Position numbers and translations under genes: made by a program. Shown in pieces: positions 12,025 through 19,866 of a stretch of DNA of 64,000 bases. This DNA comes from Microthyrium microscopicum (Eukaryota). Below the pieces are notes generated by a model. That model had not been told where the DNA came from. It ran no database searches and was given only the letters and a program-made list of their open reading frames with translations. The stretch is from positions 1,189,530 to 1,253,529 of the forward strand of contig MU004238.1 in the NCBI GenBank assembly GCA_010405405.1, in the 5' to 3' direction. Within the stretch, counting starts at the first letter, position 1. Each line of letters starts with the position of its first letter.

Positions 12025-13233
12025 CTACTTGAGATTTTCCAAATCCCGCTGAAATTCAGCAAGCAATTCTCGAAATCTAGCAGCGTATACATATGTCCAG
12101 TTGCGGACTTGTTGTAAACTTCTCACCGTCTTCTGCACTTCGTGCTCATTAGGCACGTCTAGTACCAATCCTGCCCCAAGACCGACCATCAGTGCCTGCA
12201 CTGCCTGTGCCGTTGTCTCGAGACCGGTCAACGAGCGAAGTTGCGACGCTGGGTGGTCTTCGCTCACCTCCAGAGAATCCATCATGGTCAGATCTGCCTG
12301 GTACACAATACTATGCTCTTGGCAAAAGGCACGAACTTCACGATCGCCTTGATTCTGGGTGAAGGGCCGATTCATTACAGTTGATGGTTTGGTCATCGCG
12401 GTGGAATAGATGAGCCGTAAGGAGGCTATGTCCACGTCTGCCAGACCAAGAAGAGGAAGTCCGTTGGAAGTATGAGACTCGATTGTTCGCCAAGCAGTGA
12501 CTATTTGATCCGACGGCGTGTGGGATGAATTTGCTCGAAGATTCAAACAGTCAATTGAGACGCTTCCATGGCTCAGTCGAGCCTTCAGTGATGATTCGTG
12601 TACTGGAATGGCCACGTCCGTCTGCAACTGTGAAAATGTTAGTCAAAGCCTTGACAAGAAAAGTCATTATGTGGGGTGACGATGGCTGTGTTGTTATATT
12701 ATCTAGAAATATCATTTAGTGTGTGTAGATCTACTCGCTTCCGTTGCAACGGTCCGTGCAACCGGATCTCTCTACATCACTGCGTATCTGCCTTGTGGGC
12801 TGTATTTCATATTCGGAGTCAATTCGCAAGGGACATGTTAGAAACGTGGTGACAGGAAGCTAGCCGGACGTTACAAGTCCGAAGCATATATTTGTTCCTG
12901 GACTAAACGTATGACTTGCAGTAATCTCATAATGACGGGTATCGTCATCGTACCGGTTAATCATGGCAGGAAAGTAGTACAAATCCACGATGCGAAACAG
13001 AGACGCATGTTTTATGAAAGGTGTCTTACAAAATGCATGTTGTTTCCAGTCTTTAGTGCCTCACAGGCTGCCTTGCCTGACGGTTCGCGCAATGCCTCCA
13101 TGTCTGTACAGAAGGCCCTTACACCAGCATCCAATGAAGCTTGAAGCAATCCTGGCAAGGTGCTGATTCTGACGATCAATGGAGGTCTGCCGGCAGATCG
13201 CAACAAGGTGCTTGTGAACCCTTGGAAGTTCAT
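12025..13233 (-). CDS. Degenerate aldo-keto reductase-like protein, 2 exons (13233-13030, 12627-12025), ~268 aa
   Basis: AKR-like segments in the correct order: LDAGVRAFCTD, HF|LQTD across a phase-0 GTAAGA...CTAAC...CAG intron, SIDCLNL, AWRTIE, LGLAD, KPSTVMNR, EVRAFCQEHSIVYQA. Start codon uncertain. Confidence 0.65.
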
Positions 13234-14708
13234 TATCGGATGCGGGCCAGCGGTGGCATCCGACACAAGACAAGTGACGATGATTATGTGATGATAGTAC
13301 GATGTGGTTGAGAAGTAGGCTCAGTTTGCTGTGGCTAGTGGCTGAGGAAATGCTGATATAATCGTCCACGGCATTGCTGTACATACTGTGGAATTGATCC
13401 CGTGGATTATTCATCTCTTTTGGTGGCCGAGTGTCCCGAATGTGGACCGATGGTCTAAAAATACTTCAATTGTAACTGCAGTCTTTCAACTCTCTTTCTC
13501 TCCATGCTCTCTCCTTCTTTTTTGTGCCACATTGTCCATTGAGATCGTTCATGCGCCTCTTCATCCATCGAGCGGCGTGGAAGCCACAGTCCATTCGCTA
13601 CGCGATCGTATGGTGAGAAATAAGGGAAGCCAGTAGGAGTTCATGCCGCCCTCGCAATCTAGGCCATCTTTCACACTCGCGGTGAGCAGCAATTTGTCCT
13701 CTGATGCTGGATCCAATCATCTCCATGCATTCCCAAACTAAACTCACCGTGGTGTAGTTTATATGCACGTTTAAATGCTCAGCCTCTCTATCGACCAGCC
13801 CTACGTTGAATACACTTGGCTTACGATTTATTCTCCTTCTATAGCCAATTGCTGCGAGTTATTTGAATTACTAAATATTCACTACACGTAGTATTTTTCA
13901 GCCGTTTCAACCGCCACGGGTTAACTACCGCTTCGCGCTAGAAGCGGCTTTCCATATCTCGAAGCATACCGCCTTCCCTACCACTGGAATCGTGATTCTA
14001 TAGCTACACATACTCCCAAGTTGCGGGATGGTTCAAGTATATGCTTCGGATGCTGTACAGACTTTCTTATTCTATAACGAAAATCGTACCATATCCGTAG
14101 GACGTTCCGACCTTTTCAAATCATCAAAGCGCAGTGGCTTAGGTTCCGCTCAGTGTCTAATCTGGTAAAGTCTTCCACTGCCAGTCATCACGACGTTTCC
14201 CTGACTCTCAACTCTGACTTGCTGCTCAGGACTGGGTCCACAAACTATGATTCTCCCACGTTTTTGCCTATTCAGCCCGGGCTTGGCTGTGATCTATTTT
14301 CATCTTTAACCATCACTGCCTAGTTCTTTATCTAGTTTACCTAATCAAGTGTCTCTTCTGTCTAATTCTTTCTACAGGTATAGTTCTTGGATTTCCCAAA
14401 GATTCGGCCTCCCCGGCTTGTGTTAGTATGTTCCACATCTCTCTTCCTGATGTAAGTTTAGCTAGCAAGACGTTATGAGCCACCATCATTGGCTATCTTC
14501 ACCTTCTTCCTATGAGGCACAGTCATGAGGTAGAGTTGCAGTTTGTCGATGGCGGTGCAAAACTCCGACATTATGGAATGAGTCGGATCTTGGCTATCCG
14601 TTCATCACTGTACGATGGAGTTGTGGCCTCTCAGGCTGCCTCATACCGTAGTACAGGCTTTGATAGAAAGCTGATAAATACTCACTTGTGAGATAATTTA
14701 GCATTCTG

Positions 14709-14716
14709 TATATAAG
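14709..14716 (+). promoter_or_regulatory. TATA box upstream of the 32-aa small ORF
   Basis: TATATAAG ~180 bp upstream of ATG 14888, followed by a C/A-rich leader with no ATG from 14725 to 14887. Confidence 0.55.
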
Positions 14717-14887
14717 AACACATGGTCATCGTCTTATCTATTCTTGCCATCACCATCACATCAGCAACTATAAACCAAACTACCTAGTTCACCCTGCTCT
14801 ACTTCAATCTTTCGTTAAAGACTTGTATAAGCTATATCAAACGCCACTCACCTACTACATTTCCAACCTCAACAACAACCAATCAAA

Positions 14888-14986
14888 ATGTCTCTAGCTT
14901 GGATCATTCTATCAACCATCCGACCAGCTTATGCTGGCGATGATGATAATGACGATGCTGTCGCTGGACGTGGAGGATACAACTAA
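14888..14986 (+). CDS. Small ORF, 32 aa peptide MSLAWIILSTIRPAYAGDDDNDDAVAGRGGYN
   Basis: Strong fungal Kozak context (aatcaaaATG), upstream TATA box and CAA-rich leader, and T-rich 3' UTR-like sequence downstream. No other convincing gene in 13.3-15.7 kb. Confidence 0.6.
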   Translation: MSLAWIILSTIRPAYAGDDDNDDAVAGRGGYN

Positions 14987-15756
14987 ATCTCCAAATCATC
15001 TCGAACCTCAAGACATCACTTCACTACTACCGCTCCACCACTTCATCAAAACGCACATCACACTTCTACAACACGCCACCAACCACATTTTCACAATTCA
15101 TATGCACAATCAGCTTCGGCATAGCGACGGCGTTTCTTCATTGGGTTGTTCTTTTTCACTTTCCCAGCATAGCAAGGCGTTCACATTTCTGGGCAGCAAG
15201 GCAACTCTTTTCATTGCCCAGTCGATTCTTTCCCGGGGTCCCATTCAGGCACCCACCCTCGTTCCTTTTGTTTTGGAATTCATTTCTGGGTTTCCATTGG
15301 CTTCTTGTTCGCAAGGGTGATTTTTGGCATGTATAAATAACAGCGGTTGCATTGCATCGGTATAGGCGTTGGAAGTGTTCGTGGACTGAGATGATTCGGC
15401 GCCAGGATATTTGATATTTGGATATCTTGTCATCATTTGAAATAGTCATTGGTTTTGTTTGCTTCGCACCTTTAGATACTGTATTCATACCCCATTTTCA
15501 TACCTAGTAACCACCTCAAGTAATGTCTACCACATGCATTGTTCTATGTCTATATCTAGGTAGCTTTTCGGCGAAAGTTGACCAGAGCAGGAAACCGCAT
15601 CAATGGCGTCAGATTGCTCATATTGCTCTCGCTCGAGATTCCCAGGATTGTGATGTCGGTTCGGTCAAATGCTGTTTATCAAAAATCAAGTCTGCACTCT
15701 GGAACTCAATCAAGCGGACTGTAACCTGTGGTTCGGGTCCAGCGTGAGTCTTGTAC

Positions 15757-16984
15757 TCATGATGACTCAATGTCGGGCTTCCTAGCGGCAACAATGTGCC
15801 TAAGATAGGTCAGCTTCATCCTCTACTTGATCCATAATAAACTCACATCTGAACATAGTAGTGTTGCGTACGATCTTCCAAGTCTTTCAGCACTGACGGC
15901 AGAAATTCCTCCACTTGTTCGACTGTCCAGCCTAACCGCTTGGTGTACAGCGCCATAGCACTTGGCTTGTAGAATTGCCTGAGGTTATCAATCATGATTC
16001 GGCCAATGATCTTCTCGCGCTCGCCCTTGGGCCATCCGCCAATCGGCCATTGTAGTGGTTGTTCTCGTATGTCAATGAAGCCAATGTCTTCTAGCATCCC
16101 CCTGAAGCGTTGGGTGGGATCGGCATCAATTCCATCGTTGGCGGCAGCTTCCTTGATGTATTGGCTCCATTGGAGGAACGCAGACTCAGAAGGCCCTTTG
16201 CCATCGGCAGACATGAGCGGGAATTTTGTTTCTTGTACTTCCATCCATCCTCCAGGCTTCAAGTTATCCCAGCATTGCTGAAAATATTTTTTCCAATCGT
16301 GGATCCCTTGAAGACTTAGTTGTTTCCTCAAAAAATGTAAAGCAAGACAAAAATGGCGCAAGAAGGTATTGACTTCAAGATTGTATAAGAAATGCTCATT
16401 ATCCTACCTAAGCACAGCATTCGGCTGTGAATGTAATCAAAAGGCTCTGAATAAACCCACTCCTCTTCCACGTTGTCCACTATAAAGGAGCAATTCGAGG
16501 GTAAAGAATTTGGCTGAATAGGACTCAAATCCGTGCCAATAACCTCAGCACTTGGATGCATATCTGCAAACTCGATCGCCCACTTTCCAGTTCCGGTTCC
16601 TAAATCAATCACACGATGCACATCTGCAGGTACTGGTGCAATATGTAGCCGTCCGTTCAGACAGAGCCGCCATACAATGTGCTGCAGCTCGAGCCTGGAA
16701 ATCTCCTCATCGTCGTTAGGTAGCCAATACTGGTTCTCCTGGAAAGCATGGTAGCGACGATTGTTGAATTCACGGAAGTCTGTCACGTCGCTTGACAGCG
16801 ATGAGCTCGAGGAGCTGAGGCCATCACCAAATGCAGAGTCGCCGTCATTCAGATCCGCTTCCGACGCCGCTGCTGAGTCGACAAGCAATAACGTGCCGAC
16901 AAACTCGTCAGGCTGAATTTCGTTTCCTGTGTAGCCGGACCGGGTCGCAGGTGTGGCCTCTGGTTCAGTTGGCGGGGCGCTCAT
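15757..16984 (-). CDS. SAM-dependent methyltransferase (LaeA-like / Methyltransf_23), 3 exons (16984-16408, 16306-15847, 15799-15757)
   Basis: Motifs NNRRYH, YWLPNDDEEISRL, VIDLGTGTGKWA, GTDLSPIQP, FDYIHSR, NLKPGGWMEVQE and WPIGGWPK. Canonical introns restore the frame. Confidence 0.93.
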
Positions 16985-17940
16985 GACGGCCGGTTATTGG
17001 CGATAGAGGTGTAAGCGCAGCGTCGTACCAAAACGGGCGTGGGGTTGATGTTTTGTGACCGTTGGAATGTAGCTCTCAAATCATCGGGGATCCACCTACT
17101 ATTAAGCATTTTCGTCATCTTTCTCGAGCTACAAATGAAATCGGGTCCTCTGCCGATATGCTGGGGTTGGCCAACTTTTACCCAAGACATGACGAGAGAC
17201 TCGGAGTCGCATTCCCCATCTCAAGGCTAAGAGAACGGCCGGATTGCGAAGCCGCTTCCCCTTCCGTGTGGCGGCTGATTCCTCATGCTGGACTACTGCA
17301 AAGTATGGTGGTCTTTGGGTGAGCAGAAGAAAGAAGGCTTCAACAACTGGTGCAAAGCCTAATCATAGCGGTTTGGCTGCAGATAAAATTTAGACGAGGC
17401 TGTAACTGGTTTGGCGTGTTATGCACAGGCAAGACAGGACTGGAGGTTGGGTTTCGCGGCCCACGGCATCGGATAGGCTAACCGTGCCGCGAGCAGGGTT
17501 CAAATAAAAAGAACTATCAGGATTGCGTGAAGATACCTTGCGCTTTGATGCAAAGCTATTCTCTACTCGCTGCACACCAAAAGACAAATTGAAATAATCA
17601 AAGTCGAATGCAAAGGTGCGCGCTCAAAAGGAGCATGCGCCACAGGGCCATATTCAGGGGCTGATCGACGCCTCATACGCACGAGTAATGCTTCAGCAGC
17701 CTAGCAAAGTATCAGGCTGAAATAAGAATGAGGGTATCAATGATTGATTGGAATGTTGTTAGATGCGCATGCTGAAAATTCATTTTCACCAATCAAGAAG
17801 CAATGATTGTGTGGTTCATCAGCACCGTTTGGTATTTTAGTCCTTATTCGGTATCTATCAGCTGCTAGTCAGCAAAGCGCGGCATCAGTAGCGTCCTCAT
17901 TAGGTTTAACAAATTTTACAGTGCACCTTAGACATGGATC

Positions 17941-18058: not shown

Positions 18059-19866
18059 ATGACTTCACAATACGATACCTACCAAACTTCTTTGACGGGC
18101 CGCTATTGCAGCCCGGAAATGTCCGGTCTTTTCAGTCAGCGATCTCGGCATTCGGCATGGCGCAAGTTGTGGCTATATCTTGCGCAGAGTGAGAAAGAGC
18201 TTGGGATCGATACCATCACTGATGAGGGGCTTGAGCAGATGAAGGCGCATCTCACGGTGACAGATGATGACTTCGAAATTGCTCGTGTTGAAGAGAAGAA
18301 GCGCCGTCACGTAAGCAATGGCGATGAGTTCAGTCAATATAAAAAATCTAACTGCTATACAGGATGTTATGGCTGTAAGAACTTTGATACTCATGAGTCT
18401 CATGTACTAATACTGAGCTTCAGCATGTCCACGCCTTTGGTCAAGTGTCCCCTGCTGCTGCTGGCATCATTCATTACGGAGCCACGAGTTGCTATGTGAC
18501 TGACAACACTGAACTGATTCTAATGCGTGATGCCCTGGATATTGTGATACCAAAAATTGCCAAGGTCCTTCACAATCTTCAAACTTTTGCTCTCCAGTGG
18601 AAAGCAGAGCCAACCCTTTCCTTCACACATCTCCAACCTGCTCAGGTCAGCACGGTTGGAAAACGAGGTCAGTGGAATTGTTGATTCGTTCTTCTATGAC
18701 ACACGACTTATGTTATACCAGCCGCGGGATGGGCACAAGACCTGATGATGGACTTGGACGAGTATCAACGCGTACGAAATGAGCTTCTGTTCCGTGGTGC
18801 GCAAGGCACAACAGGAACACAAGCAAGCTTCCTCGAGATCTTCGACGGTGACCACGGAAAGTGCGATCAGCTCAATGAGCTGTTGTGTCAAAAGGCTGGC
18901 TTCAAAGAATGCTACGATATCTCCACGCAAACATACACGAGAAAGGTCGATTGCCTCGTCGCAAACGCTGCTACCGGGCTGGCCACGACTGTGACGAAAA
19001 TCGCCTCTGACTTGAGGCATCTCGCTTTCTTAAATGAGGTGGGAGAACCAAGAGAGGCTGATCAAATTGGTAGCAGTGCCATGGCCTACAAGCAAAACCC
19101 AATGCGGTCTGAGCGAATTGCAAGTCTTGCCAGGGCGTTGCAAGGAAAGGCTGCAAATTTCATGAACACTCATGCCACTCAGTGGATGGAGAGGTCGCTG
19201 GACGACTCCGCAATTGTAAGTTGCTTACTCTCTTGCATCTCGGTGCAATTATCCACCCAATCTTGGGGGCTCTGCGCTGTCATAGGTCTTCCATTGAGAT
19301 TCTGTTATAGTCGCAAATCTCCGATAGATCCCTATTTTCACTCAGGCTAACAATACTACAGCGGAGGATGGATATTCCTGAAATGTTTCTTCTTGCAGAT
19401 GCCATCACTATCACGCTGCAAAACGTAACCGAAGGGCTCACTGTATTTCCCAAAAAGATACACTCCAACCTCATGCAAGAATTGCCATTCATGGTCACGG
19501 AAAGTATCATCATGAGGCTGGTGAAGAAGGGAGTGTCAAGACAAGAGTAAGTTGCCCCACCACTGAAGACGAAAGGCTAACAACCATTGCAGTGCTCATG
19601 AGGAAATTCGAGTTCTTTCCTTTGAGGCATCACTGCGGGTCAAAGGTGATGGATTGCCAAACAATCTAGTTGACAGGATCAGAGATACCGAATTCTTCAA
19701 ACCAATCTGGGCCGATCTTGACGAGATGCTCAAGCCAGAGCTGTACACTGGCCGCAGCTCCCAGATTGTCGACAAGTTCTGCGGGCCAGGCGGCAAACTT
19801 GAGCAGAAGCTTGCGCCCTATCAAGCATCTATCAAGGCCGCAAAGGCGGCTCACTTGAGTGTTTAA
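18059..19866 (+). CDS. ADE13: Adenylosuccinate lyase, 6 exons (18059-18310, 18363-18374, 18424-18667, 18722-19215, 19362-19546, 19593-19866)
   Basis: Motifs [56 protein letters not shown], the fumarate lyase signature [11 protein letters not shown], and ERSLDDSA. Confidence 0.97.

Follow-up and report, generated by a model that had tools for sequence, protein, structure and literature searches.

The intergenic DNA between two (-)-strand genes of Microthyrium microscopicum, a leaf-litter fungus, holds a 32-codon ORF on the opposite strand, which raises the question of whether so short a frame encodes a real peptide and, if so, where and with which partners the peptide might act. The window, the whole 64-kb stretch of DNA that was analysed, corresponds to C9:1189530–1253529 of the 37.1-Mb assembly. 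The original prediction regarded the ORF as the precursor of an uncharacterised signalling or RiPP-like peptide that is served by the two flanking genes. The analysis supports the ORF as a real micro-gene of an uncharacterised peptide family with a conserved GRGGYN unit, and signalling is plausible, but the part of the proposal that invoked tailoring by the neighbours found no support.

The 32-codon ORF and its transcript

The ORF occupies positions 14888–14986 on the (+) strand and reads MSLAWIILSTIRPAYAGDDDNDDAVAGRGGYN*, as predicted. The peptide is disordered and consists of three parts. The N-terminal 16 residues (14888–14935) form a hydrophobic lead that ends in P-A-Y-A and may represent a weak signal-peptide look-alike, for which hydropathy and the A-x-A end (A-Y-A) are the sole criteria. 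The 9-residue hydropathy peak of the lead is 2.28, compared with a family median of 0.71, and is reached by 2 of 106 family leads; the hydrophobic core spans only ~9 residues and lacks a basic n-region. The lead is followed by an acidic spacer, GDDDNDDAVA (14936–14965), which matches the spacer of the last unit in the family, and by the near-invariant GRGGYN unit with its TAA stop codon (14966–14986). The ORF contains no cysteine and, as originally noted, neither the C-terminal CaaX of an a-factor nor a KR site.

The surroundings of the ORF largely agree with the initial description. A stretch of ~2.5 kb (13233 to 15757), close to the ~2.4 kb proposed, lacks a long ORF. The start codon stands in a caaaATGt context, the trailer is T-rich, and a TATA-like box, TATATAAG, is present on the (+) strand at 14709–14716, where it lies inside a longer RNA contig and may serve as a proximal promoter. 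The leader is CAA-rich but, contrary to the initial statement, contains an ATG downstream of the box: at 14722 a 21-codon upstream ORF begins (14722–14787, + strand), in a different reading frame from the main ORF.

RNA evidence for the micro-gene comes from sequencing run X1, in which the region is transcribed. No run is recorded as RNA, and X1 was taken as such because it splices introns. Its contig 4 covers the (+)-strand stretch that contains the ORF (13532–15756) and runs on into the convergent gene, spanning 13532–17649 without a break. Because the contig is unbroken from 13532, the start of one or more transcripts lies ~1.2 kb upstream of the TATA-like box. The resulting long 5′ leader contains a 65-nt GT..AG intron (14165–14229, + strand), which is apparent from the sequence and spliced at an RNA joint in run X1. 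A possible second leader intron (14452–14701, + strand), with a consensus GTAAGT donor, a branch site and an acceptor, is retained in the sole RNA contig; its removal would take out several upstream ATGs. The only transcript seen carries 21 ATGs above the ORF, so translation of the ORF needs a shorter or more extensively spliced RNA. Judged from assembled contigs alone, a main transcript shorter than the RNA contig is possible. Run X2 yielded a 179-nt piece that is over 99% identical at a depth of 2.8 but bears the label of another organism, and it was excluded as evidence of conservation or expression level.

Chance expectation and the GRGGYN family

The relatives of the ORF were reached by a motif scan and a profile, and not by single-sequence searches. 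The exact 32-residue sequence has no match in a collection of 15 billion proteins and no Pfam match, and as a single query it retrieved no relative from Pfam, the Atlas or 1.84 billion representatives. A 51-residue open frame around the ORF likewise retrieved none, and no orthologue of the 32-aa form was found in the single-sequence searches, including that of the 1.84 billion representatives. The one match among the representatives, a 2389-aa repeat protein, was rejected, as its score derived from its acidic repeats.

The C-terminal motif exceeds its chance expectation. The GRGGYN codon pattern occurs once in the window versus 0.04 expected, and six times in the genome versus 0.6 expected and one match in a reversed control. 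GRGGYN directly followed by a stop codon has an expectation of 0.023 per genome but is seen twice, in the 32-aa ORF on C9 and in a 14-aa ORF on C3. The remaining genomic matches comprise three in one gene on C4 and one in a glycine-rich RRM-type protein (L002). Looser motif patterns applied across the genome gave, besides the C3 and C9 ORFs, chance frames only. The spacer was scored separately with a profile of the ten residues preceding the motif, which was built from 55 distinct family spacers with the query left out. The score of the query is reached by one of 4584 stop-ended frames in sampled genome DNA, namely the 32-aa ORF itself, and by 0.025% of 145,918 10-mers. G.?DD[DE] precedes the terminal motif in 96 of 112 relatives, and the 32-aa ORF has the same acidic G-x-DDD spacer before its last unit in addition to an exact GRGGYN C terminus on a short, ATG-led frame. 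Given the rarity of the motif and the independence of the spacer score, GRGGYN and the spacer represent two separate matches to the family, and the two values together exclude pure chance. On these sequence grounds, the 32-aa ORF genuinely belongs to a fungal family that is widespread and apparently undescribed.

To survey the family, metagenome contigs were scanned for GRGGYN-TAA (TGA and TAG stops lay outside the scan), which gave at least 119 loci. The scan pattern also admits GSGGYN, which provides an internal control. After removal of identical flanks, an ATG directly precedes 26 of the 91 distinct GRGGYN-TAA sequences among the matches listed, compared with none of the 21 GSGGYN-TAA sequences (Fisher p=0.003). 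In the 26 ATG-led matches, all four glycine codons are used at every glycine and the arginine codons vary too, indicating that the constraint acts on the peptide. Many of the other 65 GRGGYN-TAA matches look like chance frames. At the DNA level, the family comprises bare M-GRGGYN ORFs, which stand alone or in arrays of 2–3, and 42–85-aa carriers that hold several units; motif arrays on one locus are found at L029, L046 and L053. The unit is thereby packaged as one to three bare ORFs per locus or as one to five copies in short, disordered, acidic carriers. As a predicted peptide, GRGGYN is shown to be kept across distant filamentous ascomycetes.

A profile built from eight carriers and the query, with which 8000 candidates were scored, matched 195 proteins at E≤10. 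Among the 120 of these that were listed, 118 carry GRGGYN, 66 contain three units and 112 end in GRGGYN. The proposed conservation of the C-terminal GRGGYN is thus borne out; a W-x-I N terminus, which had been put forward alongside it, is not conserved in the relatives found. The named matches among those listed are hypothetical or unnamed proteins, mostly from Leotiomycetes, plus Thermoascus, but the profile is itself Leotiomycete-like, and the matched taxa therefore do not delimit the range of the family. One matching Atlas cluster has 195 'hypothetical' eukaryotic members, most commonly from Ascomycota, and no common Pfam family. KAG4411763.1 from Cadophora malorum and KAL2007231.1 from Thermoascus crustaceus share GRGGYN and the acidic spacer with the query and are family members. 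They differ from it in having 2–5 units rather than one and a Ser/Thr-rich instead of a hydrophobic lead. In the proteins P0116, P0052 and P0090, several or all units are changed together (GRSGYN, GRGAYN/GRGSYN), and these changes are of use in mapping tolerated substitutions.

No description of a GRGGYN family was found in the literature searched, which largely excluded subscription papers, and FGRGGYN, DGRGGYN and EDGRGG were not found among the literature matches listed. To our knowledge, fungi have many peptide precursors without an assigned function, and few of their peptide signals are known besides mating pheromones.

MSS1 and the three GRGGYN genes of the genome

The M. microscopicum genome contains three GRGGYN genes, which encode the 14-aa ORF on C3, the 32-aa ORF on C9 and a 290-aa precursor on C4. 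Across the family, MSS1 is convergent at 15 of the 30 loci listed and at 12 of the 16 that have at least 1.5 kb downstream, counts that still contain some near-duplicates of one species. Four loci with a long flank lack a convergent MSS1 (L040, L075, L085 and L094), and the lack of an MSS1 match at L075, L094 and L040 indicates that the gene has moved or been duplicated in other fungi too.

The 14-aa ORF, MLAQSIVLGRGGYN (C3:905381–905425; L003, match 1501–1521), is convergent with MSS1 and has a likely 5′ leader intron. It is the main-locus family member of this genome and looks unannotated. The 32-aa ORF on C9 has no convergent MSS1, the mark of the main locus, and is a paralog, given that the C3 copy adjoins MSS1. 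In a DNA alignment, the C9 and C3 loci are alike at the motif only. QSIVL is common to the C3 copy and the first unit of P0004 and P0007; the query matches the last unit. With a paralog located away from MSS1, single knockouts may be masked.

The C4 precursor (P0003; L004:1159–2031), which is 100% identical to BT63DRAFT_423284, combines a hydrophobic N terminus with five dibasic sites; of its seven units of the form GRG[GA][YH][NQS], three are exact. From its sequence features, this protein has the layout of a Kex2-processed repeat protein of the signal-peptide type. No homologue was found among 5600 candidates of 159–508 aa. It combines the GRGGYN unit with the layout of the KEPs, repeats between KR, RR or KK, as given in the available portions of PMC6339444 and PMC7329392; the 32-aa ORF differs in having neither a dibasic site nor a repeat. 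GRGGYN is absent from the main texts of these two KEP surveys, whose sequence tables may bear on the matter. Outside the motif, the likeness between the query and the C4 units stays within composition (best p=0.11 of seven units), and a special kinship between them was rejected as not significant. Two findings are new: a single-unit paralog that has a hydrophobic lead and lies apart from MSS1, and a precursor of the secreted type encoded by that same genome.

Possible modes of action

A hexapeptide that is below the reach of gene callers and nevertheless near-invariant across distant mould lineages implies a conserved, unnamed binding partner. The best explanation, to which we assign a probability of roughly 45%, is that GRGGYN acts in the producing cell as a short ligand of a conserved fungal protein. 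On this view, an old fungal micropeptide gene with GRGGYN as its active unit would have gained a second, lineage-specific copy in the 32-aa gene. The hexapeptide would fit, as a short linear ligand, into a pocket of one conserved fungal protein, much like the tarsal-less/pri peptides of insects; copy number would set the dose, and the flanks would merely serve as a carrier. The 32-aa form would supply one unit under a control separate from that of the MSS1-linked copy and would act in its own cell without a dedicated tailoring cluster. The initiator methionine is removed before glycine, and the bare M-GRGGYN ORFs would therefore yield exactly GRGGYN.

Several observations favour this intracellular action. 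The bare heptapeptides are too short to include a signal peptide; of the 106 family leads, 104 fall below that of the query in hydrophobicity. The ATG bias and free glycine codons of the bare ORFs, the terminal position of GRGGYN in most profile matches listed, the recurrence of MSS1 next to family loci and the C3 copy, and the transcription of the C9 locus are also consistent with it. The architecture parallels that of tarsal-less/polished rice in arthropods, in which, according to the available part of PMC1852585, a non-coding-looking transcript carries one 7-residue motif repeated in tandem 11-aa ORFs and a longer, 32-aa ORF. The two systems differ in motif and kingdom and share no homology, and a function has been shown for tal in that part of the source (PMC1852585). 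Moreover, the 32-aa locus has a single unit and a hydrophobic lead, and the window contains one motif rather than several motif ORFs per transcript. The missing orthologue of the 32-aa form and the 21 ATGs above the ORF weigh against an intracellular ligand, and the Kex2-type precursor on C4 and the hydrophobic lead of the query point outside the cell.

Secretion is a possible but rather unlikely alternative. In that case, residues 1–16 would be cut after A-Y-A, freeing an acidic 16-mer that ends in GRGGYN. Together with the C4 precursor, this product would provide a surface receptor with an extracellular GRGGYN ligand, and the bare heptapeptides of other fungi would exit by a non-classical route. 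The occurrence of GRGGYN in the secreted-type C4 precursor hints that the peptide is a signal and bears on the location of its target; the lead of the query is also among the most hydrophobic in the family, and at a plant-like locus GRGGYN occurs three times in frame downstream of an RRxL-type site. A 32-aa precursor is, however, very short for ER import, and its hydrophobic core is small and without a basic n-region. Furthermore, the C4 precursor is without a homologue among the candidates searched, its units resemble the query at the motif only, and most family members have no hydrophobic lead. A broader proposal, which we consider unlikely, holds that GRGGYN could be an ancient, as yet undescribed peptide signal for which filamentous ascomycetes have a dedicated receptor. 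Three routes would produce such a signal: translation as the bare hexapeptide, inclusion in multi-unit carriers, and passage of the minimal 32-aa precursor and the Kex2-type C4 protein through the secretory pathway. Under this proposal, a plant-like secreted precursor with GRGGYN would suggest a cross-kingdom signal or mimic. GRGGYN can be synthesised at low cost and MSS1 marks the position of the main gene, which makes the question directly testable.

The plant-like locus (L085:1701–2143, also L086 and L130) lies on an AT-rich contig and contains a signal-peptide-like exon and an intron-like stretch. Its RRxL-type site is followed by the three GRGGYN units, which extend in frame to the stop codon, plus a degenerate fourth. 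The splice donor of L085 fits the frame imperfectly and L130 differs upstream, so the locus is possibly a broken copy. This plant-like precursor has no Pfam match. The soybean Pep914 motif RGGNY bears a possible resemblance to GRGGYN. At L092:5004–5078, a short ORF that ends in GRGGYN runs antisense to another gene, which we take to be a GPI mannosyltransferase; this ORF is possibly a paralog in another fungus or a chance frame.

It is quite unlikely that GRGGYN serves as an RGG-type module, that is, as a substrate or decoy of arginine methyltransferases, methyl-arginine readers or import receptors, or as a tuner of RNA–protein condensates. RGG boxes are degenerate and basic, whereas the GRGGYN family is near-invariant and acidic, has no PY motif and can consist of a lone heptapeptide. 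The same six letters do occur in the glycine-rich RRM-type protein of this genome and, according to the available text of PMC8140498, in the PY-NLS of yeast Hrp1, but the 32-aa ORF contains no PY and thus does not match the R/H/K-X2-5-PY pattern given there. Par32/Amu1 offers a further likeness as a disordered fungal protein that depends for its function on a small number of strictly conserved GRGG-containing motifs; its GRGGAGNI repeats are required for nuclear accumulation, as stated in the available part of PMC6249832. Par32/Amu1 is much longer and has a different motif, GRGGAGNI is absent from the 32-aa ORF, and no Pfam match links the two families.

That the ORF arose by chance, or is a decayed frame, within a long non-coding RNA is improbable. 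The 32-aa form is without a detected orthologue and its long leader contains many ATGs, as would suit such an origin, but the motif–stop expectation and the spacer score argue against it. With pure chance excluded, what is left of this reading is that the ORF may be a recently silenced copy.

The flanking genes bear on the last alternative, a RiPP-like precursor tailored by the products of its neighbours. The (-)-strand gene at 15757–16984 encodes an intact 359-aa class I SAM methyltransferase (PF13489) and has two introns that are spliced in the RNA. The gene at 12025–13233 on the (-) strand, originally described as a dead AKR, is intact, as an RNA joint at 12627/13030 removes a 402-nt intron (12628–13029) and gives an open 268-aa frame. 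Its AKR identity is weak: the likeness to aldo-keto reductases is faint, with no Pfam match, no place among the PF00248 matches and a best PDB match at E=0.02. By sequence likeness, the product is possibly a non-catalytic member of the aldo-keto reductase fold.

Both genes behave as neighbours rather than the partners that had been proposed. The methyltransferase, the AKR-like protein, adenylosuccinate lyase and a scytalone-dehydratase-like protein gave tblastn matches at none of the 119 motif loci listed, 39 of which are shorter than 1 kb and limit this neighbour test. PF13489 is matched at least 24 times in the genome, the adjacent methyltransferase included, and the six closest methyltransferase paralogs are located away from GRGGYN genes. 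The 22 UstYa/DUF3328 matches in the genome are not near any of the three GRGGYN genes, with none on C3 or C4 and the nearest on C9 ~627 kb away, which makes a dikaritin-type RiPP cluster unlikely. Dikaritin precursors of the ustiloxin and asperipin type resemble the family in their short Tyr-containing unit, which is repeated in some members, but most GRGGYN members have neither a signal peptide nor a Kex2 site. Tailoring by the adjacent methyltransferase and AKR-like protein is thus without support and very improbable, despite the adjacency of the three genes, the intact and transcribed state of both neighbours and the Tyr and Arg residues of the core, which in the query is single and lacks a Kex2 site. 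Further downstream, the (+)-strand adenylosuccinate lyase gene contains an 11-nt micro-exon between two short introns (18311–18424), which is seen in both runs.
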